Of a stretch of DNA of 64,000 bases, positions 47,224 to 64,000 are shown one piece after another; the stretch's first letter is position 1, and each line of letters opens with the position of its first letter. The stretch is from positions 29,368-93,367 of the forward strand of contig JAURPJ010000032.1 in NCBI GenBank assembly GCA_030835305.1. Direction: 5' to 3'. This stretch comes from Verrucomicrobiota bacterium. Lineage in GTDB: Bacteria; Verrucomicrobiota; Verrucomicrobiia; Verrucomicrobiales; Akkermansiaceae. A model generated the notes under the pieces. It was not told where the DNA came from. It searched no databases and saw only the letters and a program-made list of their open reading frames with translations. A program made the position numbers and the translations under genes.

Positions 47224-47385
47224 TTTGGTTTTGGTTGATAAGGGGGAATTGTTTTTCGGAAGGTCTTTTCCAAAGGTGGTTGGCAATCGTTTTGGTTTCT
47301 GTTTCTCCGGAGCAGGCCGGAGATGGTGTTTCAACGTTTCAAATGGCGACGTTCTTCCAACGGGTTCGCTTGGATGATCTCTCGA

Positions 47386-48045
47386 TCAGGAGCTGAGTTC
47401 GTTATTGCGGGTTTCACCGTCGACGTTGGTTTGCCAGTAGTGGCCGGACTCCACATGGAGACAGGTGAGCCAGCCGCCGCGGCCGACGTCGGTATCGATG
47501 TTGATGGCGTGTCCTAGGTTGAGGGGGAGGTGGGGAGCTTTTTGGGCGGTGTGGCCACAGACCATGACCTTTCCGGACTGGTGGGGAAGCGGCGTGCCGA
47601 ATTTCTTGTGAATCAGGGTGAAAGGATGCTGGTTCGGAACGGGAATGTCATGCTCAAGGTTGGCATGTACAAAGATGTGGGTTCCGGTCTCGTAGTAAGG
47701 CTGGGTGTTGCGGATAAACTCCCAGTGGGATTCGGGGACGGCGTCCATGCCTCCATAGGATTCAAGGGTCTCCCCGCCGCCCCACGCCTCAAGCCAATGG
47801 GCGAGGTCGGTGTGATCGATCCGGGAAAGGAGAAGCTTCTCCTCGTGGTTTCCGTGCAGGAAGGTGGCTCTGTATTTTTCTTTGATGCCGATGAGGAACT
47901 CGATGACTCCTTTGGAATCTGGGCCGCGATCGACGTAGTCTCCGACGAAAATGAGATGGTCTTCCGGGGTGGGGGCGATGACCTCGATCATTTGTTTGAG
48001 CGGGTCGAGGCATCCGTGAATGTCGCTGATGGCAAGTGTTCTCAT
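47386..48045 (-). CDS. Metallophosphoesterase (Ser/Thr phosphatase 1 / ApaH-like family)
   Basis: ISDIHGC, FVGDYVDRGPDS, LHGNHE, VCGHT. Confidence 0.85.
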   Translation of the reverse strand: MRTLAISDIHGCLDPLKQMIEVIAPTPEDHLIFVGDYVDRGPDSKGVIEFLIGIKEKYRATFLHGNHEEKLLLSRIDHTDLAHWLEAWGGGETLESYGGMDAVPESHWEFIRNTQPYYETGTHIFVHANLEHDIPVPNQHPFTLIHKKFGTPLPHQSGKVMVCGHTAQKAPHLPLNLGHAINIDTDVGRGGWLTCLHVESGHYWQTNVDGETRNNELSS

Positions 48046-48171
48046 GAATTCTCGTTAAGGGTAAGCCTTTCGGGCCCCTAGAGTTAAGCACAGAAGTGAT
48101 GAATGTCTGAGAGCGTCTTTAGTTTTCGTATTGATGGGTTGTGGTGCACGGATACCTTCACACAAACGCTT

Positions 48172-49068
48172 ATGAAATTGCTTTTCACGCTCCCCGCTCT
48201 CTTTCTTCTTGTGAATTGCACGGCTGATCTTCCTTCAAGCCAATCGCCCAATGCCTTGAGGAGGGCTGCGGTGACTCCGGCGAACACAGGCGGACTGCAA
48301 CACATTATTAACGTCTCGGCTTATGATCCGAAGGAACGGTCGCGCTCGGGCTGGAGTTATTCCGAGCATGATGTCACTTCGCTGCGGGCCAATGGTGCAA
48401 AAGGTCTCATCGCCCGGGCGGGGAAAGGTGGAAATCTTGATGAAAAGTGCGGATCCTTCATCAAAGCGGCAGACCGGGCCGGATTGCTGGCCGGAGTATA
48501 TTACCGGGTCCAGAAGCATATGAGTGCGAGGCGTCAGGCTGATCAATTCGTTGACCGGGCGCAATCTCTCTCCCGGGGGCGGTCTGCCGGAGCAGCTCCA
48601 TTACTGCTTTGCGGGGATTACGACGGCGATTTATCCTTGTCGGACATCCTAGCGTTTCAAGATCGGGTCGAGCAACGAACCGGGGTGGTTCCGGTGGCTT
48701 ATTTGGAGAATAGCCAGGACTTGAAGCTCAAAATGAGAGCGGCGGATCGAGGAACCAAGTCGCGGCTTCGTCGAGCTCCCTATTGGCTTGCCTTGTATTC
48801 CCACGAGAGCGGGAAAACCTCGGAGTTTTCTCCACCGGGAAGTCCTGAAGCTCTCGTGGATCAATACGCTGTTTGGCCGACGTGGACGATTTGGCAATAC
48901 GGTGGAGTGAGTTGGGAGAATCGTCGTTCGAATGCCAAGGTTTATAGTCACGGGCGATATCAGTTCCCCAAATATTTCGGCAGCATGGACCGGGTGCTCG
49001 AGCGCAATGTTTTCAAAGGATCCTATGGCAGTCTGGTTGATTTCTGGAATCGCCACGGGATGCGATGA
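48172..49068 (+). CDS. Lipoprotein, glycoside hydrolase family 25 (lysozyme)-like
   Basis: Start moved to ATG 48172 (MKLLFTLPALFLLVNC lipobox). GAKGLIARAGKG..DEKCGSFIKAADRAGLLAGVYY.., PYWLALYS, WTIWQYG resemble the GH25 pattern. The family call is tentative. Confidence 0.5.
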   Translation: MKLLFTLPALFLLVNCTADLPSSQSPNALRRAAVTPANTGGLQHIINVSAYDPKERSRSGWSYSEHDVTSLRANGAKGLIARAGKGGNLDEKCGSFIKAADRAGLLAGVYYRVQKHMSARRQADQFVDRAQSLSRGRSAGAAPLLLCGDYDGDLSLSDILAFQDRVEQRTGVVPVAYLENSQDLKLKMRAADRGTKSRLRRAPYWLALYSHESGKTSEFSPPGSPEALVDQYAVWPTWTIWQYGGVSWENRRSNAKVYSHGRYQFPKYFGSMDRVLERNVFKGSYGSLVDFWNRHGMR

Positions 49069-49203
49069 TCCGAAATTGTTTATAAAAAGAGGATCTGCCG
49101 CACGAAGCTTTCGACATGTGCTGTCGGCTTGAGGTTTTTCGGAGCGGCAACGACCAGCTGGCGGACCAGCGAACGGGGGATGGGAATGATTTGGAACAGC
49201 AGT

Positions 49204-49235
49204 AAAAAAGGAGCCATTCCCCGGGGGAATGCTCC
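49204..49235 (-). terminator. Rho-independent terminator after the sigma factor gene
   Basis: The minus strand reads GGAGCATTCC-CCCGG-GGAATGGCTCC (one bulge) followed by TTTTTT. Confidence 0.75.
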
Positions 49236-49258
49236 TTTGAGAGAGAGTATCGGAGCGC

Positions 49259-50125
49259 CTAGGCCTCGTTGGAGAGAGTGGGAATTGGATTCTCTTTTTT
49301 CCCGAGGGCGCGCCGCATTTTATCCAGAGCAATGTTCTGCAACTGGCGGATGCGCTCCCGGGTAACGCCGAAGTCGCGGCTGATTTCCTCGAGAGTGAGG
49401 GGTTTCTTTCCGTTGAGTCCGAACCGGGCTCCGATAATTTTGGTCTCGCGCTTGTCGAGAAGGTTGAGGAGCGGGCCGAGTTCGTTGTGCATCTCCTTGG
49501 CAGTTAGCGCCTCGGAAGGGTCAACTGCCTTGGAATCGCCAAGAGTTTCGGCGTAGGTGGTCGAGCTGTCCTCTCCGACAGGTGCGTCGAGGGAGGTCGG
49601 GCGCTGGGCCGCCTGCTTGAGGAGAGCCAGCTTTTTGCGAGGAATCCCCAGTAGTTCGGTCAACTCCTCATCGGAGGGTTCGCGGCCGAGTTCCTCGGTA
49701 AGGGCGAGGGAAATCTTACGGAGCCGCGCGATCTTATCGACCATGTGGACCGGCAGACGCACGGTCTTGCTCTGGTTTGAGAGGGCACGCTTGATCGACT
49801 GTTTGATCCACCAGGCGGCATAGGTCGATAGCTTTCCGCCCTTTTCAGGGTCATATTTCTCCACTGCCTTCATCAAGCCGATGTTGCCCTCCGAGATAAG
49901 GTCGGCGAGCGGGAGGCCGTAGTTTGAATAGTCTTTCGCGATTTTAACGACAAGGCGCAGGTTGGCGCGGATCATGTGATCGCGGGCTACTTCGTCCCCG
50001 TCCTTGATGCGTTCGGCGAGTTCAACTTCCTCTTCAATGGTTAAAAGCGGGGTTTTGGCGATCTCGTTCATGTAAACACGCAAGATGCTATCGGAATCCT
50101 TGTTCATGGCCGACAAGTTTGGCAC
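49259..50125 (-). CDS. Sigma-70 family RNA polymerase sigma factor, RpoD/RpoS-like (regions 1.2 to 4.2; no region 1.1)
   Basis: RANLRLVVKIAKDYSNYGLPLADLISEGNIGLMKAVEKYDPEKGGKLSTYAAWWIKQSIKRAL. ..TLEEISRDFGVTRERIRQLQNIALDKMR. GTG start at 50125 or ATG at 50107. Confidence 0.9.
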   Translation of the reverse strand: MPNLSAMNKDSDSILRVYMNEIAKTPLLTIEEEVELAERIKDGDEVARDHMIRANLRLVVKIAKDYSNYGLPLADLISEGNIGLMKAVEKYDPEKGGKLSTYAAWWIKQSIKRALSNQSKTVRLPVHMVDKIARLRKISLALTEELGREPSDEELTELLGIPRKKLALLKQAAQRPTSLDAPVGEDSSTTYAETLGDSKAVDPSEALTAKEMHNELGPLLNLLDKRETKIIGARFGLNGKKPLTLEEISRDFGVTRERIRQLQNIALDKMRRALGKKENPIPTLSNEA

Positions 50126-50192
50126 ATAATCCAGAGTTGACTAGGAGTTAGATTAATTTTTGGGCGATTTCTCAGTTATCGGAGATCTAAGT

Positions 50193-50224
50193 AAAATAAA
50201 ACCGCCGAGTCATAAACCCGACGG
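50193..50224 (-). terminator. Rho-independent terminator after the small basic ORF
   Basis: The minus strand reads CCGTCGGG-TTTATGA-CTCGGCGG followed by TTTTATTTT. Confidence 0.6.
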
Positions 50225-50287
50225 TGCAAATGGCAGAAGTGTGCGGTCTGCCGGACCGGATCATGCAAGTCGCACGGGGAAAGATCC

Positions 50288-50392
50288 CTAGGACTTGTAG
50301 CGGAGGCGCTTCTTGTGGCGATTGGCCTTCATGCGCTTTCGGCGCTTGTGCTTGCTGATCTTGGTCTTCCGACGCTTCTTAAGGTTGCCCAT
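50288..50392 (-). CDS. 34-aa hyperbasic peptide, bS22 / AURKAIP1-COX24-like (not in the ORF track)
   Basis: My translation from ATG 50392 to TAG 50288: MGNLKKRRKTKISKHKRRKRMKANRHKKRLRYKS (19 of 34 residues are K/R). Its own terminator lies downstream. Confidence 0.6.
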   Translation of the reverse strand: MGNLKKRRKTKISKHKRRKRMKANRHKKRLRYKS

Positions 50393-50459
50393 GGTTTTTG
50401 TAGTTGGATTAAGTTCTGCGGATTTTTGAAACCGCAATTCCGTTAAATTTTTGTTTGTT

Positions 50460-51374
50460 TCAGGAAACGATCTTGTTGAGAGGATATTCGATAATGCCTT
50501 CAGCGCCCAGATCTTTCAAATCTGGGATGATATGACGCGCCACCTTCTCGCAGATGATAGTCTCGAGTGCAAGCCAACCATCTTCGGTGAGCTTTGCCAC
50601 GGTGGGGCGGCGCAGGGAAGGGAGCCGCTCGAGGACTGCATCGAGCGATGCCTCGGGCAGGTTGAGCTTGAGACCAACTTTATCGCGGGCTTCAAGCGCT
50701 CCCTTGAGCATCATTACCATGCGCTCCATCTTGCCGCGCTTCCATTCATCGTCGAAGGCTTTCTTACTGGAGTAGAAGTGAGGGAAGGAGGAGAGAAGTT
50801 CGTCAACAATGCGGAGTTTGTTGGCACGGAGGGAAGATCCGGTCTCGGTGACATCCACGATGGCATCGACTAGGTCGGGGACTTTGACTTCGGTCGCTCC
50901 CCAGGAAAATTCGACGCTGGCATTCACTCCTTTTTCGGCGAGGTAGCGCTTGGTGATATCGATCCCCTCGGTCGCGATGTGCTTGCCTTCAAGGTCTTGC
51001 ACCGTTTTGATGGGAGAGTCTTCAGGCACAACCAGAACCCAGCGGGTGGGGCGTGTGGATGCGCGTGAGTAGGGCAGTTCGGCGAGATCGACGAGATCGA
51101 CGTCGTGACCGTAGGCCCAGTCGAGGCCGGTGATCCCGCAGTCGATGAATCCCTGATCAATATAGCGTGCGATTTCCTGGGCCCGGATCATGTAGATATC
51201 CAGAGAATTATCGTCTGAAGAAGGCCGGAGGCCCCGATCCGAGATATAAATATTATAGCCGGCCTTCTCGAGGAGATCGAGGGTCGGTTTCTGCAGACTT
51301 CCTTTTGGAAGCGCTATTTTGAGTGAGTTGGACACGCGGGGCGGAGGTTTTAGCGACGAATCCCAAGGAAGCAA
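50460..51374 (-). CDS. hisG: ATP phosphoribosyltransferase, long form
   Basis: LKIALPKGSLQKPTLDLLEKAGY.. plus a C-terminal regulatory domain. The track start is TTG 51374. GTG 51335 (VSNSLKIALPKG) may be the true start. Confidence 0.85.
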   Translation of the reverse strand: MLPWDSSLKPPPRVSNSLKIALPKGSLQKPTLDLLEKAGYNIYISDRGLRPSSDDNSLDIYMIRAQEIARYIDQGFIDCGITGLDWAYGHDVDLVDLAELPYSRASTRPTRWVLVVPEDSPIKTVQDLEGKHIATEGIDITKRYLAEKGVNASVEFSWGATEVKVPDLVDAIVDVTETGSSLRANKLRIVDELLSSFPHFYSSKKAFDDEWKRGKMERMVMMLKGALEARDKVGLKLNLPEASLDAVLERLPSLRRPTVAKLTEDGWLALETIICEKVARHIIPDLKDLGAEGIIEYPLNKIVS

Positions 51375-51596
51375 GTATTTTGCGCGATTCCGCCATTTCC
51401 TTTCACTCCTTAGTGCTTTTCGCGTTGTCGTTGGTCAAATCACCAAGGACGCCGTTTGAGGCTGGTGGTTCGGAGGGACCCATGGCTGGGTGGCGCTGCT
51501 TCGTCCCAGGAGGACAAATGATCCCGATGAACTGGGGTTCCTCTTTTCTGGTGCACGAAGCAAGAGTAACAGCAAGTACTCCGAGGAGGACGTCGA

Positions 51597-52862
51597 TCAG
51601 AGAGTTGCCTCGCCGTAATAGGGCTGGAGTGCTTTGGGGATGTGAATAGTTCCATCAGCATCTTGGCATTGCTCTAGGACGGCTACGAGAAGGCGCGGCA
51701 GGGCAGTGCCGGAGCCATTTAAAGTGTGGCAGAAAATGTTTTTTCCCTTGGCATCCTTGTAGCGGAGCTTCATGCGGCGTGCCTGGTAATCTCCGAAGCA
51801 CGAGCAGCTGGAGACTTCGAGATACTTGCCCTGGCCGGGTGCCCAGATCTCGATATCATAGGTTTTGCAAGAGCTGAAGCCGACGTCGCCGGTGCAGAGC
51901 TCGATCACCTGATAATGCAGGCCTAGCTTTTGAAGAGCGGTTTCGGCGTGGCCGGTGAGTTCTTCAAGAACAGCCATTGAGGTGGCGGGATCGACAATTT
52001 GGACGAGCTCGACCTTGTCGAACTGGTGCATGCGAATGATACCGCGATTGTCACGACCCGCGCTGCCTGCTTCGCGGCGGAAGCAAGGAGTATGGGCGGT
52101 CATTTTGATGGGGAGCTCGCTTTCGGCGAGGAGGGTGTCGCGATAGAGATTGGTGACAGGAACCTCGGCGGTTGGCGCGAGGAAAAACTCGTTGTTTTCC
52201 GTGCCATACATGTCGTCCTCGAACTTGGGGAGCTGGCCGGTTCCCTCCATGCATTCGCGCTTGATGATGTGGGGAACGTTGACCTCTTCATAGCCGTTTT
52301 CACGGCTTTGAAGATCGAGGAGGAATTGGATGAGGGCACGTTGGAGCCGGGCCCCCTTGCCACGATAAACTGCGAAGCCGGAGCCCGACAGACGTGCCCC
52401 ATCGTCGAAGCTAATGATGCCTTTTTCTTCAGCCAGATCGAGGTGATCGCGGGCCTCGGCAAGGGCCGGTTTTTCTCCCCAGCTTCGGATGATTGGGTTG
52501 GCATCCTCGTCAGCACCAACCGGACAATCTTCGTGTGGAAGATTCGGGATGTTAAGAAGAAGTTCGTTTTGGCGCTTGGCGGCCTTACTTCCTTCGTCGT
52601 CGAGAGCCTTGATTTGTTCGCCGATCTTTTTGACCTCGGCTTCGATGCCAGAGGAATCTTCGCCATTGGCGCGGAGTTTTCCAATTTCCTTGGAGGTTGC
52701 TTTGCGCTCGGACTGAAGGACCTGCTTGGCCGTTTCGTTTTTGCGGCGGGTTTCGTCGCAAGCGAGGACTTCGTCGATAAGATCTGCTGAGCCATCGTGA
52801 CGATTGGCGAGGCGTTCTTTGACGAGTTCAGGATTTTCGCGGATGACTTTGATGTCGAGCAT
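51597..52862 (-). CDS. serS: Seryl-tRNA synthetase
   Basis: Start moved to ATG 52862 (MLDIKVIRENPELVKERL). Coiled-coil arm. Class II motifs (FRREAGSAGRDNRGIIRMHQFDKVE; TLNGSGTALPRLLVAVLE). Confidence 0.9.
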   Translation of the reverse strand: MLDIKVIRENPELVKERLANRHDGSADLIDEVLACDETRRKNETAKQVLQSERKATSKEIGKLRANGEDSSGIEAEVKKIGEQIKALDDEGSKAAKRQNELLLNIPNLPHEDCPVGADEDANPIIRSWGEKPALAEARDHLDLAEEKGIISFDDGARLSGSGFAVYRGKGARLQRALIQFLLDLQSRENGYEEVNVPHIIKRECMEGTGQLPKFEDDMYGTENNEFFLAPTAEVPVTNLYRDTLLAESELPIKMTAHTPCFRREAGSAGRDNRGIIRMHQFDKVELVQIVDPATSMAVLEELTGHAETALQKLGLHYQVIELCTGDVGFSSCKTYDIEIWAPGQGKYLEVSSCSCFGDYQARRMKLRYKDAKGKNIFCHTLNGSGTALPRLLVAVLEQCQDADGTIHIPKALQPYYGEATL

Positions 52863-53145
52863 GGTGAGGGATTGGATGTTTCGTGAATTCGCAAGGCGCT
52901 TACTCGATTTCCGCGAGTCTGGCAAAGGTAGATTCAACCCGCCTGACCGCCGAGGCATTTATTCCCAGTGTTGTTCGACGTAATTGCCTGAGGGAGAATA
53001 CCAAACGGAAATCTCATTTCGCTCAAACCGGCCAAAGCCCCAATTCATGGTCGCAAATGGAGCGATGAGCGGCTCAAGCAGGAAAAGGGAGATGGCGGAG
53101 TAAAGAGCGAATATTTCCTGTTGCGACCCCCCCCGCACCATGGGT

Positions 53146-53436
53146 CTAGGTTCCCCACGTGACGAAGTCTTCCCGGGAGGATACCGGCAGACTCATGGTG
53201 AGATGCGAGAGTTCGTCGGGCCTCTCTTTGAAAGCCGGGATGTTTTTTATGGGCATCGGCTTTGGGAAGTTCGTCGAGGACCAGGGTTTTCCCAACTTTC
53301 GGTGCACCTCTGTCCGCGTGTGAGATGGTTTGAGATGCGGTCTGTATTTCTCAGTTGCCGCGATATGGACAGTGCAGGAAGGGAGTGAGGAGGCGAGCAC
53401 ACGGGTGGAGATGAGTAAGATAATCGGGCGGGACAT
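53146..53436 (-). CDS. Hypothetical small lipoprotein, possibly truncated or frameshifted
   Basis: MSRPIILLISTRVLASSLPSC lipobox-like. HLKPSHTRTEVHRKLGKP resembles a BamE/SmpA-like motif. A second ORF (52959..53141) follows in another frame. Confidence 0.3.
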   Translation of the reverse strand: MSRPIILLISTRVLASSLPSCTVHIAATEKYRPHLKPSHTRTEVHRKLGKPWSSTNFPKPMPIKNIPAFKERPDELSHLTMSLPVSSREDFVTWGT

Positions 53437-53586
53437 ATTCCTTATGTAGCCAACTTTGGCGCCATTTCGTAAATCGATACTTTCAAATTGTGCATCGCAA
53501 AAACAGATGGTTCGCCCCTGGGAGAAAAGGGATCGCCTCTAAACCCCATACTTAAACTACTGATATTTCTGGATAATGATGACGGG

Positions 53587-54978
53587 TCAGGCGATGATCT
53601 TGTCTATCAGCTTTCCAGTGCGGTCTTGTGGGCCGAGTTTGGCTTTGGTGCCGGTGGTGCGGGCCATGGTGTTATAAACATCAAGGCCCTCGGCATTGAC
53701 GTCGACAATTTGGCCGGTTTTGAGGCGGCCGTTGGCTCCGGTGCAGGCGTGGAAGACGCCGGATAGTTCGCGTTTGGTGTCGTTATGACGACCATCACCT
53801 GATTCCGTGGAGACGGTGATCATGGCGTTTTCGAGAATGGTTTTGCCATTCGCTTCACGGGTCTCTTCCGTTGAAAGGAGAGAGAGGAAGTGAGCGACTT
53901 CGCGCATCTTCATGTGAGCGTGGGCGCGGAGCTGTTCGTTCTTCTTTTTCTCGTTGAATTTATGCCACCACTCGTGGGAACAACCTTTGTCGCCGGAAGC
54001 CCGAAGCTGGGCGGAGTCGTCGAAGGTGAAGCGCTTTTCGCCGTTGTAAATGTAGTCACCTTTGATGCGGAGTCGTTCGCCGGCGGCGAGGAAGGTCAGG
54101 GAACCGAAGCGGGCACGATCGGTCTGGATGGCGAGGGCGTAGAGCCCGGACATGAGGCGCCATTCGCGGACGAGGTCATCGAGTGGCATGTCGAGGCCCT
54201 GGCCGCCGGGGTCGGCTTTGCCTCCGTGGGGAAGTTGTGAGGATTCGGGGCGAGGTGGGGCGTCTTTGTCGACTTCGAACTGGAAGGCGCGTTGTTCGTA
54301 TTCGCGGATGCGGTCGAGGTGGTTTTTAAATCGATCTTTGGAGGCGGAGCCGAGAGGGGAGTTTTTGCCGGAGTAGTGCCGGTATTGTTCGAGAACGGAA
54401 TCGAGAACGCTTCGTTGAAGCCGTTCGTCAAGGTCGTCATTACCCTGGATTTTGCCGAAGACTCGGGTGAAGAGGTCGATGGGTCTTTCCTGCATCGCGG
54501 CGGCGACGGTGCCGTTGGCGTGGTAGGAATGGACGTAGCGGGAGATGCGGCTTCGCCGGAAAAAGGTTCCGGCGACGAGGGTGGGAACCACGCCATTGGG
54601 TTGGCCTTTCGGGTAGTGGGCCTGACGAAGGAGTTGGTCAAGGGAAGCACCACCGGCGCGCGCTTCTCCATTCGGGGCGGTGGCGGTGAAGGCGGCGGAT
54701 GAGCCGTCGAAGTGGGCGTTGATGCCGGATTGGTCGGCGCGGACGTGATCGACTCCTCGCATGACGAGGAGTTTGTCGGCGAGTGGCTTGAGGGGTTCCA
54801 TGACGCCATCGAATCCTTCCAGCTGAAGAGGCGAGGGAATGCCGAGACCAAAGAAAAGGTTGAAGGCGCGCATCGGAATGGCGGCATCTGCGCTCCTGGT
54901 GGCGGCTGACATTTCTTCGAGGAATGGAAGTCCGATGGTGGTTCCGGCAAGGGAGCGAAGGAGGGTACGGCGGTTCAT
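53587..54978 (-). CDS. DUF1552 protein
   Basis: Start moved to ATG 54978 (MNRRTLLRSLAGTTIGLPFLEEM, the typical DUF1552 N-terminus). 20 nt downstream of its DUF1592-type partner. Confidence 0.8.
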   Translation of the reverse strand: MNRRTLLRSLAGTTIGLPFLEEMSAATRSADAAIPMRAFNLFFGLGIPSPLQLEGFDGVMEPLKPLADKLLVMRGVDHVRADQSGINAHFDGSSAAFTATAPNGEARAGGASLDQLLRQAHYPKGQPNGVVPTLVAGTFFRRSRISRYVHSYHANGTVAAAMQERPIDLFTRVFGKIQGNDDLDERLQRSVLDSVLEQYRHYSGKNSPLGSASKDRFKNHLDRIREYEQRAFQFEVDKDAPPRPESSQLPHGGKADPGGQGLDMPLDDLVREWRLMSGLYALAIQTDRARFGSLTFLAAGERLRIKGDYIYNGEKRFTFDDSAQLRASGDKGCSHEWWHKFNEKKKNEQLRAHAHMKMREVAHFLSLLSTEETREANGKTILENAMITVSTESGDGRHNDTKRELSGVFHACTGANGRLKTGQIVDVNAEGLDVYNTMARTTGTKAKLGPQDRTGKLIDKIIA

Positions 54979-54998
54979 GGGAAGGAAGGGTGGCAATT

Positions 54999-57509
54999 TT
55001 ACTCGGTGACGAGAGGGGAGGTGGCGAGATGGAGAATGACGTTTTGGTAGGATTGATTTTCGCGGACTTGCGAAAAAATGGAATCAAGGTGAGGTCGATC
55101 AGTTGTAGCGATGGGGCGGCCTAATGAAAATTGCGCGAACTTCCAGATGATATTCTGACGCACGCGGGGGCTTTTGGCGAGCAGATCCATGAGTTCGCGC
55201 GAGGTCTTGTATTTGACTGTTTGGGCAGTTCCGGGAATGAGGATTTTGCCATCTTGGCGGAGTTCATTTTTGAAATGGTCGAGAGTTGTATAGCGGGCGA
55301 GTCCGTCATATTGCTCAAGGCCGAAGGCGAGAGGTTCGAACTTGGCGTGGCATCCGCCGCATGATTGATCGAGCATCCGGCGCTCGGCGATTTTTCGCTG
55401 GGAAAGCCCGGGTGCGGATGGGACGGGTGTGGTGTCGACTCCAGGCGGCGGGTCTTTGACCGAGCCTCGAAGAAGCTCGTGCAGTACAAAGAGGCCTCGG
55501 GTGACCATGGAGGCTTCGTCGCCTCCGATGGTGAGGAGGCTGCCCTGGGTGAGAAGTCCGCCACGTGGAGTACTGCTTAAGTCGTACTTGGTGAATGGAT
55601 CGGACTTGGGTTTGAGTCCGTAGTGTTTTGCGAGATCAGGGGTAAGGAAGGTGACGCGGGCGTTGAGGAGGTCGCCGAGGGGACGCTTCTCCTCCCAGAG
55701 GAGGTGTTTGGCAAAGGCGAGGGTTTCACGCCGCATGTCTTCTGCGAGTTCGGGGTTCCACTCGGGAAATTCTGTTCGATTGGGCTGAAGATTTTTGAGG
55801 TGATCGAGATTGAGCCATTCCGAAATGAAGGTCTGCGATTGGGCGACGGCAAGGGGGTCATTCAGCAACCTGATCACTTGTTTGCGAAGTTGCCCGGGAT
55901 TGTGGAGTGAGTGATTTTTGGCGGCGTCAAAAAGTTCCTGATCAGGTGGTCCGCCCCAGACGAGGTAACTCAGGCGTGAGGCAAGTTCGTAGGAGTCGGG
56001 TGAGCCCTCTCCCTCGATACGGTAGAGAAAGCGGGGGGACTGGAGCATGCCGCGAAGCACATAGGCAAAGGCTGAATCAAAATCACCACCGGATGCTCCA
56101 ACGCTGGTGACGATGCCCTGGAAGAGATCAATTTCACGGCCGGAAAGCGGACCGCGGAGCAGCCAGGTGCCGACCGACTGGAGGTGGGGGCGGATCGTAT
56201 TTTGAATCGTTTTGCGATTGCCTGAGAAGCGGCGGGCGAACTTTGGGACGTCGAGTTTTGCGACGATGAGGTTGGCGAGTTTGGCATGGGCTTCGACGTG
56301 CTTGAGGTCGACGCCGAGGTTGTAGGCAGTGTTGCTGAATCCGTCGGTGCGGATGTCTGCCGGCAGGAGTTCGCGAGCCTCCTTTTCGATGTCGACGCCG
56401 GTGGCGGCCTTGACGGTGGCGATATATTCCGAAGTGGAGAGGCGACGCGGGAACTTTTTTGGGTTGGTGATGAGAAGATGGGCGGCAGGGTCAAGATGTT
56501 CGCTGCTCCAGATCGCGCCGGTTTCGATCCACTCACGGAGGTGTGCTTTCTCCTCGGCAGAAAGAGGGGCGCGTTTTTCAGGCATCTCATCTGATTCGAC
56601 GGATTCCCAGACGACGCTCTTTTTGAGGTGTCCGGCGGAGATGATCTTCGGATCCAGAAACGCGGTGCTTTTATGGGAAAGGTCAAGATCGCCCTCGGCC
56701 GTGGTGGAGTCGTGACATTCCAGACAGTGTTTGGCCATGATTGGCTCGATGTGATTGATAAACAGAGTCCGGCTCCGGTCGGCGGGAGATTCGGGTATGG
56801 GAGGGGCGAGGCCATTTTGGAAAAGCTTGGCGATGTCGGTTGGTGAAAGGGCATCGGCGTAAATGGCAACCTGGTGGAAGGTCCCCAGCCAGGGGCGGTC
56901 ATTTGATAGTTCATTTCCAAGAGCGATGCGGTAGCCGCCATCCCAATTTACCGGCGATCCGGAGAAATTCCGTTGTCCGCTTTGACGCCCGTTGATGAAC
57001 GTTGTGCCCGTGCCGTTCTTTGATCTTGTGAAGACGACATGAGTTTGTTTCGTGAGGACTTTTCCCGAGGAAAGTGAGGGGGTTCCGTTTGTCCCGATTC
57101 TGTCGGTGCGAAAGCGGGCGTCGAAGGTGCTATTGTCCTGACCAAGAGTGGCGTTGCGATTTGAGGAGTCGCGCGAGATGGTGACGATTCTTGCAGGACC
57201 GGATTGAGAAAGATTGGCCGGAGTAATCCAGACGCTGATGGTGATTTCGCCTGATTTTTTGACAGCGTTGATGAGCTTGGTGGGGGGAGTCTTGGAGGCG
57301 AGAAAAGTGGGGCGGAGGAGGGTGAGGGATCCGGATTCGCGCTTCAGCGATTTTTGATCCGGGATTTCAAGGTGGGCAGGTGGATTGACGCCGGAGGAAT
57401 CGATGATTTGCGAGCTGCTATCTTCATTGAATTGGTAGAGGACGACCGGATCAGGACCGGCAAATGCGGAGGTAACGAAAAGAGGGATTAACAACAGTGA
57501 CCGGACCAT
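54999..57509 (-). CDS. LamG-like + PSCyt + DUF1592/DUF1588-type (PSD) protein
   Basis: Start moved to ATG 57509 (MVRSLLLIPLFVTSAFA). LamG tail WLGTFHQVAIYADALSPTDIAKLF. Heme motif AKHCLECHD. SCGGCHAKFEPLAFGLE. Confidence 0.8.
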   Translation of the reverse strand: MVRSLLLIPLFVTSAFAGPDPVVLYQFNEDSSSQIIDSSGVNPPAHLEIPDQKSLKRESGSLTLLRPTFLASKTPPTKLINAVKKSGEITISVWITPANLSQSGPARIVTISRDSSNRNATLGQDNSTFDARFRTDRIGTNGTPSLSSGKVLTKQTHVVFTRSKNGTGTTFINGRQSGQRNFSGSPVNWDGGYRIALGNELSNDRPWLGTFHQVAIYADALSPTDIAKLFQNGLAPPIPESPADRSRTLFINHIEPIMAKHCLECHDSTTAEGDLDLSHKSTAFLDPKIISAGHLKKSVVWESVESDEMPEKRAPLSAEEKAHLREWIETGAIWSSEHLDPAAHLLITNPKKFPRRLSTSEYIATVKAATGVDIEKEARELLPADIRTDGFSNTAYNLGVDLKHVEAHAKLANLIVAKLDVPKFARRFSGNRKTIQNTIRPHLQSVGTWLLRGPLSGREIDLFQGIVTSVGASGGDFDSAFAYVLRGMLQSPRFLYRIEGEGSPDSYELASRLSYLVWGGPPDQELFDAAKNHSLHNPGQLRKQVIRLLNDPLAVAQSQTFISEWLNLDHLKNLQPNRTEFPEWNPELAEDMRRETLAFAKHLLWEEKRPLGDLLNARVTFLTPDLAKHYGLKPKSDPFTKYDLSSTPRGGLLTQGSLLTIGGDEASMVTRGLFVLHELLRGSVKDPPPGVDTTPVPSAPGLSQRKIAERRMLDQSCGGCHAKFEPLAFGLEQYDGLARYTTLDHFKNELRQDGKILIPGTAQTVKYKTSRELMDLLAKSPRVRQNIIWKFAQFSLGRPIATTDRPHLDSIFSQVRENQSYQNVILHLATSPLVTE

Positions 57510-57558
57510 CGGTATTGAAACGGTGGTTGCGGGGATGGACTTACAGCTCTGCGAAGAT

Positions 57559-59583
57559 TTACTGAAGGTGCTGCTGGAAAAATTCAATGCGTTTACGGCG
57601 GAAGTGTGGGGCCTCGCCTCCGCCATGTCCGGCTCCGGGGATCATGTAGAAGGTGAAGTCCTTATCGGCTTTGATGAGATCGTTGACAATCTGGTAGGTT
57701 GAGGAGGGATCGACGTTTTTATCCATTTCGCCGACGGTGAGCATGAGTTTTCCCTTCAGTTTGGGGATGTGGGTGCGGTTTGAGTTCTCGATGTAGGATT
57801 CGTTGATGGGCCAGTCGAGCCATTGTTCGTTCCACCACATTTTGTCGACGCGGTTGTCGTGGCAGCCGCAGTCCGAGACCGCAACTTTATAGAAATCGGG
57901 ATGATGAAGAAGGGCGGCGGTGGAGGATTGGCCGCCGGCAGAGCCTCCGTAAATACCCACTCGGGTGATGTCCATTTCGGGATGCTTGGCGGCAGCGGCT
58001 TTCATCCACTTAATGCGGTCGGGAAAGCCGGAGTCCTTGAGGTTTTTGTAGGCGACTTGCTGAAATTTTTTCCCCCGGTGGTTGGTCCCTAGGCCATCAA
58101 TTTGGACGACGATGAACCCGCCTTCCGTCATTTCGTATTTGTGACTCGACCAGCTGCTCCAGCTTTTGGGGACAAAGGATCCGTGCGGGCCAGCATAGAT
58201 GTTTTCGATGACAGGGTACTTCTTTCCTTTTTTGAAGTTGCGGGGTCGCCAGATCACCCCGTGAATGTCGTATTCGTTATTGCGGTCTTTGCAGACGAAG
58301 CGCTCGGGGAGTTGCCAGTCGATTTTGAGTTCGGGCTTGTTGAGGGTGGCGACGATTTTGGTGTCGGAAGTACGGCGGACTTCGTAGACAGGGGGGTGAT
58401 CAACGCGGGACCATTTGGCGAGGTAGTGTGTTTTGTCGGGTGAGAAGGAAATCTCGTGGGTGCCGTCTGATTCGGTGAGAAGGGTTAGTTTGGCAGTGTC
58501 GAGATTAACGAGGGCGTAGTGGAGATAGTAGGGGTCCTGGTCGGAGTAGTAGCCGGAGACTTGGAGGAGCGCGGTGCGTTTGGCTTCATCGACGGAGACG
58601 ACGTTGCGGAGAACCCAGTCTCCGCTAGTGAGGGGGCGTATGACATCGCCTGATTTGCGGTCGAGGAGATAGAGGTGATTGTAGCCGGTGCGTTGGCTGA
58701 GCCAGAGAAATTCCCTTTGATTGCCAAGGAGGCGGTAGTAGCAGTGTTCAAAGACATGAACGAATTTGTCTGATTCTTCGGCGGCAAGGATGCACTGGAA
58801 ACGGGTGTCCGCGTCGATTTCAATAAGGCGGTATTTTCCGAAGCCACGCTCAATGTAGGCGAGGGTAAGGCGGTGGTCTTTTTCGTGCCAGCAAAGATCT
58901 GAAATGGAGTAGGGGTTTTTGATGAGGGTGGGACTGACGGGGATAGATTTGCGGTCGTCGGTGAAGAAGATGACCGGCATGGAGACATTACGTTTGTCGC
59001 CGGGTTTTTCGTAGTTGTGAACGATGTGCCGGGGTTGAAGCTGATCTTTTGGGGAAGATTCAACCAAGTGGACCTGGTAGGTGGGATGTTGGGTCCGGTG
59101 GGTGAGGTAGAAGCACGAGGAATCGGCATGCCAATGGACACGGGAGTCGTAGTTCGATCCTTTGGGGGGCGGTGGAAGCTGTTTCGTTTTGCCGCTGTTC
59201 AGATTTTTGAGACTGGGTTGGTTTTCAAAGATCACTTCCCATTTGCCATCGGGAGATTTTGGTGAAGACCCGGTCTTGTTGCGATCTCCTCCCGGCGCAA
59301 AGGCTTTGGGTTCGACGGAGGGTTTCGCCTGTTTGTTGAATTGGGCTTCGTCAACGTTGCCTGACTGAAGGTTAAGTTGATAGGATTTCTCCGAGCCATC
59401 GAGGTTGGCTTTGAAGAAGAAGGTTTTGTTGTCCCCGGACCATCGGTGGGGGAGTCTGGTGTTGGGAACCTGGGTCCGCTGTTTTTCATAGAGATCCTGC
59501 ATATTCTTAAGCCAAGATTTTGTGCCACCGTGTTCGGCAAGGAGGGGCAGACTCAGGGTGAGAAAGGCAATGATTCGGAGCAT
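57559..59583 (-). CDS. Dipeptidyl-peptidase IV-like S9 family serine peptidase
   Basis: Signal peptide. N-terminal propeller region. Nucleophile elbow GIYGGSAGG. ..GEMDKNVDP.. ..IPGAGHG.. Confidence 0.8.
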   Translation of the reverse strand: MLRIIAFLTLSLPLLAEHGGTKSWLKNMQDLYEKQRTQVPNTRLPHRWSGDNKTFFFKANLDGSEKSYQLNLQSGNVDEAQFNKQAKPSVEPKAFAPGGDRNKTGSSPKSPDGKWEVIFENQPSLKNLNSGKTKQLPPPPKGSNYDSRVHWHADSSCFYLTHRTQHPTYQVHLVESSPKDQLQPRHIVHNYEKPGDKRNVSMPVIFFTDDRKSIPVSPTLIKNPYSISDLCWHEKDHRLTLAYIERGFGKYRLIEIDADTRFQCILAAEESDKFVHVFEHCYYRLLGNQREFLWLSQRTGYNHLYLLDRKSGDVIRPLTSGDWVLRNVVSVDEAKRTALLQVSGYYSDQDPYYLHYALVNLDTAKLTLLTESDGTHEISFSPDKTHYLAKWSRVDHPPVYEVRRTSDTKIVATLNKPELKIDWQLPERFVCKDRNNEYDIHGVIWRPRNFKKGKKYPVIENIYAGPHGSFVPKSWSSWSSHKYEMTEGGFIVVQIDGLGTNHRGKKFQQVAYKNLKDSGFPDRIKWMKAAAAKHPEMDITRVGIYGGSAGGQSSTAALLHHPDFYKVAVSDCGCHDNRVDKMWWNEQWLDWPINESYIENSNRTHIPKLKGKLMLTVGEMDKNVDPSSTYQIVNDLIKADKDFTFYMIPGAGHGGGEAPHFRRKRIEFFQQHLQ

Positions 59584-59617
59584 GGCGAAAGGTATCTTGG
59601 GTTTTCTGTTCGGATAG

Positions 59618-59654
59618 AAAAAAACGGTGGCCGGGAAGAATCCCGATCACCGTT
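59618..59654 (-). terminator. Strong rho-independent terminator after the thioredoxin-fold gene
   Basis: The minus strand reads AAAACGGTG-AT-CGGGA-TTCT-TCCCG-GC-CACCGTT followed by TTTTTT. Confidence 0.75.
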
Positions 59655-59674
59655 TTGATGAGGTTTTTTAAGAA

Positions 59675-60373
59675 CTAGGCTTCGTCTTTTTTAGCGGCGG
59701 CTAGGGCTGCAGCTTTGCCGCGGGCGACTTCCTTGCCTTTCCGGTCGACAAGAATGTAGGAGGGCATTGGAATTCCGCCTCCCGGGAAGAAGGGGCTTAC
59801 GAATTGCCCGGTATCGAGATCTTCGCGCAAGATCGTAGGCCAGGGTTGATTGAATTGCTTGGCCCATGCGGTGGCCATATCTTCGGACCCATCGAGTGAA
59901 ATGTGGACCATCTCAAGGTTGGGATTGGTTGCAATTTCCTTATTGTAGGTCTCCGCTAACTGCGGGGCGCCATTACGACAGGGGCCTCATGTGCTGGCTG
60001 CAAAATAGAGAAGAAAGTATTTTGGAACTTCCTCGAGTTCATGTTTGGTAAACTTGGAATTCTCGAATTTTTGAAGCTTCCTGAGGGTCTTGCCAAACTT
60101 GCTTCTGGAGAACTCTTCAGCAGCGATCTTGTTGGCTTCGGCCGAGGCGATTTTCTCGTCTTCCGCTTTGGCCCACTTCTGATCTTCTTCCGAAAGAAGC
60201 GTAAGTTTGAAGGTCATCTGCTTGATGCCGCGTTTAACGGTGACCGAGGTGCCATCGCAAGAGACAAAGTCCCCTTCGAAGGTTTTCGAGCCATCGGCGC
60301 TGGTCCAGGTGCGGGACTGACCGAGGCCTGCCAACATGAGGGATGTGATTGCTGTAAGGATGGTTTTTTTCAT
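59675..60373 (-). CDS. Secreted SHD1-module + TlpA-like thioredoxin-fold protein with an in-frame UGA at the CxxC (candidate selenoprotein, T-U-G-P-C); alternatively a nonsense-mutated gene
   Basis: Track ORFs 59987..60580 and 59675..59911 share one frame (59989-59911=78). Read-through from ATG 60373 gives MKKTILTAITSLMLAGLGQS..RTWTSADGSKTFEGDF..LSEEDQKW..VPKYFLLYFAAST[TGA 59989-59987]GPCRNGAPQLAETYNKEIATNPNLEMVHISLDG..GGIPMPSYILVDRKGKEVARG. Confidence 0.6.
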
Positions 60374-60449
60374 AAAGGATCCAGCCCTCAATACGAAGCT
60401 GTGGAGCAATTTTGTCTCACCAAAGGCGATTTTTTGCCGAAACGTTCCG

Positions 60450-61883
60450 TCACTCCCCGGCTGCGAGGCTTTTGGCCATGCGGGGAAAGAGGATCCAGTG
60501 GAGGGGCAGAACGGCATACCAGTATGCTCGTCCAAGCAGTCCGCGGGGGCGGAAGGTGGCGGTTTGGATGAGTTGGTCATCGGTGATCTCGAATTGGAGC
60601 CAGGCTTCGCCGGGCATTTTCATTTCTGCTGCGAGAATCAAGCGGGCGGATGATTGAGCATGGCCCCGGTCGGAGAGGACGACGCGCCAGAAGTCGAGGG
60701 CGTCGCCGGGGAATAGCTCGGTGGGGTGGCGTCGGCCGCGCCGGATCCCGGTCCCGCCCATGAGGCGGTCCATCCATCCGCGAAGTTTCCAGGCCCAGTT
60801 CATCGAGGGTCAGCCTTTGGCGCCGCCAAGGGACCACACGGAGGTTATGGCTTGTTCACGTTCGGATTTGAGAGAGAAGGTTTGTTTGTCGGAGAGGATG
60901 CCGTGCGAGGGAACTTGCACAGATTGAAGAAAAGCGGGATCAAGATGACCAGAGGCGAGAGAGTCAAACCACGAGGAGGGAACCTTGTTCTGGGCGATAC
61001 GAACAAAGGCTTTATCGATGGCTTGTTCGTAGGTGAGTAGGTTCTGGGGGATAAGCTTGGAGAGGCGCTCGTCTTGGCAGATGGTTTCGTTTACGAGAGA
61101 TTGGACGAGGGACTTAGCGAGCGGGTAGCTGGCGGCGGTGACGAGGTAGAGCCAACGCGCGGAAAGCCCCGGGGTGAAAAACGGGATGGGTATGATCAGG
61201 CGCTTGAGGTGACGTGTGGAAGCGTACCCGGTGAGGAGTTTGCGGTAAGAGAGCATGTCGGGGCCGCCGATGTCAAATTCCTCGCCAAGGGTTTCTTCGT
61301 GTTCGAGGACTCCGGTGAGGTAGCCGATGACGTTACGGATGGCGATGGGCTGGCAAAGGTTGGCAGTCCACTTCGGGGTGATCATGAAGGGGAGCTTTTC
61401 GGCGAGGTCGCGGATGATTTCGAACGAAGCTGATCCTGAGCCGACAATGATGGAGGCGCGGAGGGTGGTGACGGGCGTGGGACCCTGACGAAGGAGATCG
61501 TTGACTTTTTCGCGTGAGGCGAGGTGGGTGGAAAGTGAGCCCTTTGGGACAAGTCCGCTGAGATAGATGACTTGGCGGGACTTGATCCAGCTGGTGAAGC
61601 GGTGGGCGCACTCGGCTTCGCGTTCTGCGAAATCACTTCCGGTTCCCATCGAGTGGAGCAGATAGTAGGCGGCGTCGATGTCTTTGGGAACGGGCGGAAG
61701 GTCGCCCAGGAAATCTCCTTCCAGCAGTGTGAGTTGATTGTTCGTAATGAATGGGCGGAATTGTGAGGAGGGGAAGCGCGGAATGGAGCGTACGATACAG
61801 GTCACGGTATGGCCCGCTTCCAGCAGGGTGGGAAGCAGGCGCATGCCAATGTACCCATTGGCGCCGGTGAGGAGAATGTGCAT
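60450..61883 (-). pseudogene. YbjT-like NAD(P)-binding SDR + DUF2867 protein split by an in-frame TGA (60812-60810)
   Basis: MHILLTGANGYIGMRLL.. (ATG 61883) ..ITSVWSLGGAKG[TGA]PSMNWAWKLRGWMDRLMGGTGIRRGRRHPTELFPGDALDFWRV..MKMPGEAWLQFE.. The two track ORFs (60810..61904, 60450..60803) are in frame. The joined length of 477 aa matches single-chain homologs such as E. coli YbjT (about 476 aa as I recall). Confidence 0.6.
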
Positions 61884-61935
61884 GAGACAACGCAAGCTAG
61901 CCACAAATGGCGAAAAGGAAAACGACTCTTGGGCT

Positions 61936-62853
61936 CTAATTGGCGTAGAAGGGAATCAACCGGAGGAGGGATTCACCAAGATCGAGGAAGTTGTTCCACC
62001 ACTGAAAAATGAAGCTCGCAAGTTGCACCTCGCGTGAAGTGGCGCAGAGGATGACGGAGAAAAGGACGAGGTTGGCGAAGATGATGATCATCAGCGAGAG
62101 GAAAGTCCCGTTCTCTTTGAGATCGGGTTGATCCTTCGGTATCATCCAGACAGTCCAGATAATGTGGAAGGTCCAGGTAAAGCCGAGGATTCCGGTGAGG
62201 ATAAGGCTTCCGGCGGGTATTTTCCACCACAGACTTACAAAACTGTGAAGGGAGATGATAACGGCCGACCAGAAGGGAATGAAGTAGGGCGAAAGGGCGA
62301 TGAGAATATTGGATTTATTGGTCATCACATATCCACCCTCGGTGCTGAAGTGAATTGCGCTGATACGCCCCCCGCAGACGTAAACAAACATGGCGTGGGT
62401 CATTTCATGTCCCAGCACGTAGAGGTAAAGCAGGCGGTCGTTGGCGATTCCGGCGATGAACCAGCTGATCATCGAGCCCATTCCGGCGACGAAGCAAAGG
62501 AGTTCGGTGGAATACCAGATGGTTTGAAAAATTCGTTCCTCACCGCTCTCTTTCATGAGGGTGATGGTGGTGATGAAGCAGAGCGGAATGAGGAGGATTG
62601 CTAATCCCCAGTGCAGAATCCGGCGGACCAAAGTGAGGTGGATAAAGTCATCCTCATAGAGGTCATCCGCTTTTGCGGTGTCGGCGATGGCTGCTTGGCG
62701 GGTCATGCCGTGGCGTCTGCGATTGCCCCGGAAATTGACCTGGCTTTGTGCACGTTGGTGAAGGTTGAGCAGGCTGGTGCACCAACCGGCGCGGCGCTTC
62801 TGGCGGGTGCGGGCGCGTTGGTTGAGTTTGCTGGAAAGTCTGCGATTGGCCAT
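61936..62853 (-). CDS. Polytopic membrane protein with an HExxH motif (M50B-like / DUF3267-like putative zinc metallopeptidase)
   Basis: LYVLGHEMTHAMFVYVCGG embedded among about six hydrophobic segments. Basic N-terminal tail. Confidence 0.55.
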   Translation of the reverse strand: MANRRLSSKLNQRARTRQKRRAGWCTSLLNLHQRAQSQVNFRGNRRRHGMTRQAAIADTAKADDLYEDDFIHLTLVRRILHWGLAILLIPLCFITTITLMKESGEERIFQTIWYSTELLCFVAGMGSMISWFIAGIANDRLLYLYVLGHEMTHAMFVYVCGGRISAIHFSTEGGYVMTNKSNILIALSPYFIPFWSAVIISLHSFVSLWWKIPAGSLILTGILGFTWTFHIIWTVWMIPKDQPDLKENGTFLSLMIIIFANLVLFSVILCATSREVQLASFIFQWWNNFLDLGESLLRLIPFYAN

Positions 62854-62947
62854 CGAGATGGTTAAGTTAACTAAATGATTCTGAAAAATAAAGCGAATGT
62901 CTTGGATTCCCTGAGCCTTCTGGCTTGCTCCTTGCTACGGTGAGCCT

Positions 62948-64000
62948 GTGAGCGACGAAAAAGAAGTGCCCGGTCTGGTGAAAATTGATCCCTGGCTCGC
63001 GCCTTATATCCGGATGATTCGTGACCGGACGGCCCGGTTTGAGGAGCGCCTGGCCGAATTTGGATCGTTGTTGGATTTTGCAACGAGTCATCAACGGTTG
63101 GGCCTTCATCGCGAAGGGGACTTTTGGGTATTCCGGGAGTGGGCTCCGCGGGCCAAGGCGCTCTTCCTGACCGGCGATTTTTGTGATTGGTCGCGTGTGG
63201 AATATCCCTTGCGGCGTTCGCCCGGACTGGGGATTTGGGAGGTCAGGATTCCCGGTCAGGCGATAAAACATGGCGATTTGTATAAAATCCACATCGTTGG
63301 GGCTAATGGCGCTCATGACCGTATCCCGTCGCATGCCACCTATGTAGTGCAGGACGAGGAGACCAAGGTGTTTTCAGCTCAAGTGCAGGATGCCCCCGCG
63401 TATGAGTGGCGGAACGAAGCCCCTGGGGCGGTTAAGATCCCAAAGATCTACGAGGCGCATGTGGGCATGGCCACCGAGGAGTTCAGGGTGGGGACGTATC
63501 GTGAATTTGCGGACGATGTTTTGCCGCGCCTCGCTCGTTTGGAATACAATGTGGTGCAACTCATGGCGATCGCCGAGCATCCTTATTACGGGTCATTCGG
63601 ATACCACGTTGCCAACTATTTCGCGCCAAGCTCGCGATGCGGTCCGGCCGAGGATTTGAAATATCTCATCGATACCGCCCACGGGATGGGGATTGCGGTG
63701 TTGATGGATATTGTGCACTCGCACTCGGTCAAGAATTTCGCGGAAGGACTGTCATCGTTTGACGGAGAGGAGGGGCTTTATTTTCACGAGCGCGACCACC
63801 CGCAATGGGACTCGCGACTTTTCGATTACGGTCGGGCCGAGGTCTGTCGGTTCCTGCTCTCAAATGTGGCTTACTGGATGACCGAGTTCCGCTTTGATGG
63901 CTTCCGCTTCGATGGGGTGACCTCAATGCTGTATCACCACCATGGCAATATCGCTTTCGATCACTATGATAAATATTTTCTGGATGGGGTGGAATGGGAT
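62948..64000 (+). CDS. glgB: 1,4-alpha-glucan branching enzyme (GH13, eukaryote/Bacteroidetes-like type), N-terminal 351 codons; continues beyond the window end
   Basis: Not in the ORF track (runs off the edge). My translation from GTG 62948: VSDEKEVPGLVKIDPWLAPYIRMIRDR..FREWAPRAKALFLTGDFCDWS..IYEAHVGMA..YNVVQLMAIAEHPYYGSFGYHVANYFAPSSRCG..VLMDIVHSHS..FRFDGFRFDGVTSMLYHHHG. Track ORF 62867..63334(-) is a shadow. Confidence 0.85.
   Translation, partial: MSDEKEVPGLVKIDPWLAPYIRMIRDRTARFEERLAEFGSLLDFATSHQRLGLHREGDFWVFREWAPRAKALFLTGDFCDWSRVEYPLRRSPGLGIWEVRIPGQAIKHGDLYKIHIVGANGAHDRIPSHATYVVQDEETKVFSAQVQDAPAYEWRNEAPGAVKIPKIYEAHVGMATEEFRVGTYREFADDVLPRLARLEYNVVQLMAIAEHPYYGSFGYHVANYFAPSSRCGPAEDLKYLIDTAHGMGIAVLMDIVHSHSVKNFAEGLSSFDGEEGLYFHERDHPQWDSRLFDYGRAEVCRFLLSNVAYWMTEFRFDGFRFDGVTSMLYHHHGNIAFDHYDKYFLDGVEWD

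Follow-up and report, generated by a model that had tools for sequence, protein, structure and literature searches.

Selenoproteins with a UxxC motif in a thioredoxin-like fold have been known since 2005, when 'thiol-disulfide isomerase-like protein' selenoproteins (UxxC; pfam13905 / cd02966 TlpA-like) were predicted from the Sargasso Sea (PMC1088965), and the family is still listed in reviews (PMC9312934; PMC13188914). The established bacterial pathway for selenocysteine (Sec, U) consists of SelA, SelB, SelC and SelD (reviewed in PMC13188914). In the bacterial model of the selenocysteine insertion sequence (SECIS), a loop of 3-9 nt sits on a stem of 4-16 bp, 16-37 nt from the UGA, with a G among the first two nucleotides of the loop and a G or U after it, and the folding energy is at or below -7.5 kcal/mol (PMC13188914). 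Here we describe a thioredoxin-like gene with an in-frame TGA on the minus strand of a 64-kb stretch of Verrucomicrobiota contig JAURPJ010000032.1 (positions 1..64000; hereafter the window, meaning the whole stretch that was analysed). Our analysis indicates that 60373..59675 is very probably one functional gene encoding an exported thioredoxin-like selenoprotein, with UGA as its Sec codon, and not a broken gene.

An in-frame TGA is conserved at the active site

By inspection of the open reading frames (ORFs) in the window, the minus strand from the ATG at 60373 to the TAG at 59677..59675 forms a single frame, whose sole internal stop is the TGA at codon 129, in the context ...PKYFLLYFAAST-[TGA]-GPCRNGAPQLAETYNKE... 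This agrees with the original prediction, made from this DNA alone, in which two minus-strand ORFs were read as one frame split only by the TGA at 59989..59987. From its N terminus, the read-through product would carry a signal peptide, then a small module of beta strands joined by a helical linker to a thioredoxin fold, whose redox motif reads T-U-G-P-C. All 44 orthologs begin at an equivalent MKK... and finish about 100 codons past the TGA. Because of this shared beginning we take the ATG at 60373 as the real start, rather than the ATG at 60580 that opens the listed 197-aa ORF (59987..60580, minus strand), whose upstream extension is not conserved as protein.

Orthologs came from a scan of one genome per species, which yielded 43 full-length loci in 43 species-representative Verrucomicrobiales/Akkermansiaceae genomes; these are metagenome-assembled genomes plus the complete genome of a cultured strain, Oceaniferula spumae NT6N, whose ortholog lies at about NZ_AP026866.1:2094037-2094738, with the TGA near 2094436. 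Whether orthologs carry TGA or Cys at this column had been left as a check by the original prediction. The homologous codon is TGA in 43/43 orthologs, down to about 36% amino-acid identity, and is followed each time by (G/P)-P-C. A wider scan of 1.2 Mb of related-locus DNA found TGA in 10/10 tandem paralogs also, which brings the Sec-type genes to 54, the window's own included. We also screened this 1.2 Mb for further in-frame TGA codons matched by TGA or Cys in other loci; the inspected matches beyond this family and its paralogs looked like off-frame or low-complexity noise.

Protein databases hold the same pattern in truncated form: about 50 predicted-protein clusters end at the TGA residue (~128 aa, ...SASW or ...AAST), ranging from 99% down to about 35% identity. 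Only two database homologs are full-length, P0001 and P0002, and both have Cys at the TGA position, in P0002 as SASW-C-GPC (codon TGC) and in P0001 as SASS-C-ATC (codon TGT). As both share the gene order of the window (AspRS, SDR/DUF2867, then the thioredoxin-like gene), we regard them as true orthologs. Sec genes outnumber Cys genes 54 to 2 in this family, which occurs in marine and freshwater Akkermansiaceae/Verrucomicrobiales and has undergone tandem duplication in some genera. As the comparison across genomes shows, selection has evidently maintained this in-frame UGA throughout a whole bacterial family.

In Roseibacillus-like and other genomes, the tandem paralogs, each with TGA, adjoin the ortholog upstream or downstream (L016:9659, L017:9646, L021:9646, L023:1318, L029:7598, L032:9647 and L038:9584; also L019:5324 and L025:11057). 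In one paralog clade the motif is FSGST-U-GPCREHAPELLEKY, where Thr precedes Sec as it does in the window protein, and the hairpin described below is retained with its closing pair flipped to G-C. An extra copy at L026:6363 (SSSW-U-PSAVSTAPQLV) has the Sec codon and the hairpin and is the one paralog without the resolving Cys132, reading U-P-S-A; it may be either a single-selenol variant or a decaying copy.

A pseudogene would account for the TGA in another way, as a TGT/TGC-to-TGA nonsense mutation at the active-site Cys that left two ORFs as remnants. Such lesions do occur at this locus: the next gene upstream, already described as broken in the original prediction, has a true nonsense lesion, TGA at 60812..60810, where TGG (Trp) stands in 8/8 covering relatives, one of them a contig with 95.9% identity to the window. 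That lesion is private to the window, which is how a real pseudogene behaves, and the thioredoxin TGA is unlike it, as independent assemblies have the same codon in all 43 orthologs and in the 10 paralogs, and about 50 database clusters stop at the same residue. An assembly artefact is likewise implausible over 43 independent assemblies.

The frame is translated past the TGA

The downstream ORF is complete in 44/44 family genes, and mean pairwise amino-acid identity is the same on both sides of the TGA (0.49 after it vs 0.48 before). Between the window gene and nine relatives, the ratio of nonsynonymous to synonymous substitution rates (dN/dS) is 0.09-0.27 downstream and 0.05-0.19 upstream. 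With the TGA shared by every ortholog and the downstream frames intact and constrained, the nonsense-mutation alternative is refuted, and we consider a pseudogene extremely improbable.

If termination at the TGA were complete, only a 128-aa N-terminal protein would be made, and the thioredoxin part would be untranslated or produced separately from the internal ATG at 59911. All public gene calls do end at the TGA, and there is an ATG-initiated 78-aa ORF at 59911..59675. However, the 25 codons from the TGA to this first Met hold top-conserved residues of the domain, P131, C132, A136, P137 and Q138, and translation from M155 would yield a product lacking both the fold's first helix and its redox motif. 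The upstream part, for its own part, stops within the beta strand leading to the active site, and the Cys orthologs are single full-length proteins. Because conserved residues precede the first Met, separate downstream initiation cannot explain the data; and since protein-level conservation extends over the downstream frame, in which no restart codon is conserved, translation must run through the TGA. We therefore regard an N-terminal product alone as very improbable.

UGA is otherwise an ordinary stop here, ending 12/35 long ORFs in the window and 5/44 family genes. Genome-wide reassignment of UGA was rejected on this ground, and the recoding is therefore local and context-dependent.

A covarying hairpin lies at SECIS distance

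A short hairpin follows the UGA within the coding region. Counting the U of UGA as nt 1, its helix pairs nt 23-28 with nt 34-39 around a loop at nt 29-33. Across the family the hairpin has 6 bp and a loop A-G-U-U-R, lies 19-36 nt past the UGA, with the loop beginning 25 nt past it, and is invariant at loop positions G30 and U32. This fits the bacterial SECIS model in loop size, stem and 25-nt spacing, and in having G and then U as the second and third loop nucleotides. In the window, the helix around the loop AGUUA (59961..59957) has four contiguous pairs, one C.A mismatch and one further pair. The hairpin CCGC-AGUUA-GCGG, noticed at 59965..59953 by the original prediction, is present as the inner four pairs of this helix.

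The pairing is best seen in the alignment. Among 49 distinct sequences, 90.1% of helix cells are in standard pairs, vs 36-56% in controls in which the 3' partners were slid by 1-3 columns, and compensatory changes on both sides occur at 4/6 helix pairs, so that the hairpin does covary among orthologs, a point the original prediction had set down for checking. The closing pair is CG in 43 sequences and GC in 6 and is unpaired in none; in paralogs, Gln-to-Glu and Val-to-Leu replacements turn it from C-G into G-C. Pair 27-35 is A-U where codon 140 is Val (GUG) and the Pro codon is CCA, and G-C where the residues are Ala (GCG) and Pro CCG, a pattern in which the synonymous site follows the amino-acid change.

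Consistent with constraint on the RNA, codons 136-142 are the 7-codon window of lowest synonymous entropy in the gene (0.296 vs a mean of 0.739; 0/100000 permutations). Within the hairpin, Gln is CAG in 44/44 and Val is GTG in 30/30, and Leu is encoded only by TTA/TTG; other Leu columns favour CTC. The hairpin is degraded in both Cys orthologs: in L083 the positions cannot pair at all, and in L084 the hairpin is down to a 4-bp remnant. In the latter (L084:3262-3960, protein P0001, TGT), the remnant is accompanied by the peptide ASQLAAT, near APQLAE, which suggests a recent Sec-to-Cys conversion with a decaying SECIS. Collectively, the comparative data show a UGA that is evidently read through, at the catalytic position, with a conserved hairpin at SECIS distance.

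Domain architecture and a proposed mechanism

For profile searches we used the window protein with Cys replacing the stop. Pfam Thioredoxin_8 (PF13905) matches residues 118-214 with 41.8 bits vs a cut-off of 27, and AhpC-TSA, Redoxin and Thioredoxin also exceed their Pfam cut-offs; among NCBIfam models, none covers the window protein. In the PDB, tryparedoxin I is the closest match by sequence (E 2e-7), and the alignment puts the TGA on the first Cys of its WCPPC motif, as expected from the earlier proposal that the TGA occupies the place of the nucleophilic Cys. As a stand-in for the structure of the window protein we used the AlphaFold model of the Cys ortholog P0002 (mean pLDDT 77.9), in which a signal-peptide helix is followed by a four-stranded beta module (pLDDT ~96), a long helix and the thioredoxin fold. 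The CxxC (154-157) follows a strand at 145-151 and lies at the N terminus of the fold's first helix, which starts at 156. Against the PDB, Foldseek matched this model to tryparedoxin, ResA, plasmoredoxin and DsbE, with E ~1e-6 and probability 1.0, and to StoA at a similar E.

The N-terminal beta module is the most conserved part of the family. It had been called SHD1-like, and the label finds weak support among relatives: PF03983 (SHD1) matches 3/15 family members (best E 4.6e-5), and P0053, which shares the module, has a precomputed PF03983 assignment, while the window protein itself gives no Pfam SHD1 match at E <= 1. Ahead of the module, the signal region of the orthologs has a K-rich n-region, a hydrophobic core and small residues at -3/-1, and the window protein is without a lipobox Cys. 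These features point to a signal peptide of the Sec (translocon) type in a predicted non-lipoprotein.

These observations are consistent with a model in which, by analogy with the bacterial SelA/SelB/SelC/SelD pathway, a SelB-type elongation factor with Sec-tRNA(Sec) would bind the hairpin and deliver selenocysteine at the UGA. Judged from its sequence, the signal peptide would route the product via the Sec translocon to the periplasm, where the tryparedoxin/TlpA-like domain may act as a thiol-disulfide reductase, as its family and its U-x-P-C motif suggest. The U129 selenolate would attack a substrate disulfide (or a sulfenate or peroxide), C132 would resolve the intermediate to an intramolecular selenenylsulfide, and a DsbD/CcdA-type membrane electron donor would re-reduce the enzyme. 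The SHD1-like beta module and the helical linker probably select or tether the partner.

Weighing selenocysteine against other readings of the UGA

TGA conservation, the Cys orthologs, the constraint downstream and the covarying hairpin together support what the original prediction had put forward, a UxxC thioredoxin-fold selenoprotein. Several observations weigh against it. The 64-kb window and 80 related loci (1.2 Mb) yielded no selA, selB, selD or tRNA-Sec, a negative that is uninformative at this coverage, as the loci are 20-kb pieces amounting to well under 1% of each genome. In these searches, ARAGORN found no tRNA-Sec in the window or 60 loci, and a tblastn search with the E. coli proteins SelA, SelB and SelD turned up only one weak GTPase match across the window and 80 loci. 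A database search with E. coli SelA had only Enterobacteria among the matches listed, and in the literature we found nothing on a Sec trait in Akkermansiaceae or on this selenoprotein family.

The hairpin, too, has points against it. Folded alone, the 28 nt of the window hairpin give -7.2 kcal/mol (z = -0.4), a weak structure that narrowly misses the -7.5 kcal/mol of the SECIS model and that would also suit a pseudogene. The 65 nt past the UGA are no stabler than shuffles (-14.2 kcal/mol, z = -0.06), and over the family the folding energy of nt 21-41 averages -7.5 kcal/mol (range -2.3 to -12.4). Folding the region past the UGA, as had been proposed, thus recovers the hairpin and finds it thermodynamically unremarkable in the single sequence; it stands out from chance only because of the comparative data. 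RNAalifold returned no consensus structure on a 40-sequence alignment, and the helix was specified by hand and tested by pair counts. A scan of the whole window at Rfam gathering thresholds gave no match; such short bacterial SECIS elements are not modelled in Rfam. Moreover, the conserved APQL(V/A)E peptide could cause part of the nucleotide conservation in the hairpin. As to the protein, nearly all orthologs have Trp just before Sec, and the window and its closest relative have Thr. Across 44 loci, no conserved dsbD or ccdA neighbour backs the proposed redox partner, and both export and the enzymatic role are things we infer.

With the sel genes not found in the DNA covered and the hairpin short, the UGA might be translated but not as Sec, either by near-cognate insertion of Cys or Trp or by recoding of a kind that does not use SelB and SECIS, with the hairpin slowing termination. 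UGA-to-Trp reassignment is reported in some Verrucomicrobiota (PMC13462651). Against this, UGA is the normal stop for about a third of the window genes and for five family genes, which leaves no room for reassignment across the genome. The position is that of a catalytic Cys, with Cys in orthologs, and so forms a classic Sec/Cys pair, and the hairpin geometry and loop G-U match the SelB-dependent bacterial SECIS model. It is also hard to explain why a leaky stop would persist at the essential catalytic residue of 54 genes, with Cys one mutation away, unless the UGA specifies a residue for which Cys is no substitute. We consider translation of the UGA as another amino acid unlikely, and favour Sec insertion; our confidence in a selenoprotein stops short of the highest grade mainly because the check for Sec machinery was limited to the window and locus pieces.

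Features of the gene and its surroundings

The features of the gene are collected in Table 1. The terminator that follows it had been described as very strong, and this holds: the stem-loop 59656..59621 with its U tract has a folding energy of -22.3 kcal/mol (z = -5.85), and 0/200 shuffles were equally stable. A simple consensus terminator scan did not pick up this stem-loop.

Table 1. Features of the predicted selenoprotein gene in the window (coordinates in the window; aa, residues of the read-through product)
Feature	Position	Strand	Details
Complete gene, predicted selenoprotein	59675..60373	-	232 codons + TAG, one in-frame TGA (codon 129)
Predicted Sec-type signal peptide, aa 1-20 (MKKTILTAITSLMLAGLGQS, before RTWTS)	60314..60373	-	Read from sequence
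All-beta N-terminal module, SHD1-like, aa ~21-60 (RTWTSADGSKTFEGDFVS...VTVKRG...TFKL..LSEEDQ)	60194..60313	-	Conservation, ortholog model
Charged alpha-helical linker, aa ~61-100	60074..60193	-	Long helix H88-115 in P0002 model; low sequence conservation
Thioredoxin-fold domain, tryparedoxin / TlpA / ResA type, aa ~105-220	59714..60061	-	Pfam, PDB, Foldseek
Predicted selenocysteine codon U129	59987..59989	-	In-frame TGA, nucleophilic first position of UxxC
Resolving Cys132 of U-G-P-C (TGT)	59978..59980	-	Cys in 44/44 orthologs
SECIS-like hairpin, coding region	59951..59967	-	Pairing, compensatory changes, synonymous constraint
Intrinsic terminator	59614..59656	-	15-bp interrupted stem, 4-nt loop, U7 tract

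The gene lies between an S9/DPP-IV peptidase gene downstream and the broken SDR/DUF2867 gene upstream. No neighbour is common to more than 9/44 loci, and conserved neighbours do not include genes for cytochrome-c maturation, copper proteins or dsbD/ccdA; gene context gives no functional clue. In the SDR/DUF2867 gene (61904..60450, minus strand), the TGA splits a ~484-aa NAD-binding/DUF2867 frame (...SLGGAKG-[TGA]-PSMNWAWKLRG...). Judging by its relatives, this TGA reflects not recoding but either a nonsense mutation private to the window or an erroneous base call.

Window positions 51584..64000 share 95.9% nucleotide identity over 12.4 kb with JAUIGV010000013.1 (Verrucomicrobiia bacterium isolate Co_bin.176), which points to the same or a sister species within Akkermansiaceae/Verrucomicrobiales. 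At 53587..57626 on the minus strand, two genes form a pair that is typical of Planctomycetes and Verrucomicrobia; one encodes an 875-aa protein with PSCyt1, PSD2-5 (DUF1585/1587/1592/1595), PSCyt3 (DUF1588) and Laminin_G_3 domains, and the one after it a 469-aa DUF1552 (HXXSHH) protein. GC skew is positive in every 4-kb bin of window 1..64000 and its cumulative value climbs steadily to 2.47, which places the window within one replichore with no skew switch.

Significance

All Sec-form members of this family in the protein collection searched (~50 clusters) are cut at the UGA, the few with a name are listed as hypothetical protein, and the catalytic domain is invisible to annotation. Recognising the Sec codon would give back an exported redox enzyme to dozens of Verrucomicrobiales genomes. 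The gene would also imply a need for selenium, and Sec machinery, in these bacteria, which are common in marine and freshwater metagenomes. As an RNA element, the family appears to be a clear case of a minimal coding-region SECIS that limits synonymous sites and amino-acid choice and whose hairpin decays after Sec-to-Cys conversion. Oceaniferula spumae NT6N, being cultured and completely sequenced, makes the prediction directly testable.

Comparison with known systems

The 'thiol-disulfide isomerase-like' family is the nearest described group of selenoproteins. Like it, the window protein has Thioredoxin_8 as its best domain and a UxxC with nucleophilic Sec, and comes from marine bacteria; in both, a SECIS-like coding-region hairpin lies just past the UGA and Cys homologs exist. 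The published descriptions, on which this comparison is based, mention neither a signal peptide nor an SHD1-like module. A second selenoprotein model, NF053656 ('TUGYCR motif thioredoxin fold (seleno)protein'), was rejected at 13.8 bits vs a cut-off of 100; it resembles the window's T-U-G-P-C in having Thr just before Sec, where nearly all orthologs have W.

The hairpin resembles the E. coli fdhF-type SECIS and the bSECISearch consensus (per PMC13188914) in its coding-region location, 5-nt loop and 6-bp upper stem. It differs in being very short, with no conserved extended lower stem, and SelB binding is putative.

Among Cys proteins, TlpA, ResA, CcmG/DsbE and StoA share with the window protein a thioredoxin fold, a reducing-type CxxC and export, here predicted. 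Their PDB sequence matches are weak but significant (TlpA 1jfu, E 9e-4; ResA 4nmu, E 1e-3), and the Foldseek matches of the P0002 model to ResA, DsbE and StoA score on par with tryparedoxin. The window protein differs from this group in having Sec instead of Cys and an added N-terminal module. Membership in the ResA, DsbE and TlpA families was rejected on NCBIfam scores (27.2 vs 170, 22.3 vs 123 and 20.4 vs 230, respectively).

Tryparedoxin, the trypanosomatid WCPPC protein (PDB 1o7u, 1ewx, 6gxy), is the closest solved relative by sequence and fold. Its active-site stretch almost equals the family consensus Y/FSASW-U-(G/P)PC-R-xSAPQLVE-Y and aligns residue for residue with the window protein. 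Tryparedoxin is, however, a cytosolic eukaryotic Cys protein with trypanothione as its reductant, and it lacks both a signal peptide and any additional domain; the likeness shows fold and chemistry, not the same pathway.

Tentatively, the family may be a distinct, undescribed subfamily, an exported fusion of an SHD1-like and a tryparedoxin-like domain that would represent a lineage-wide periplasmic selenium redox trait, with a minimal 6-bp SECIS constraining APQL(V/A)E. In its kind, the window gene belongs with the known UxxC thioredoxin-like selenoproteins and is not a new kind of system.

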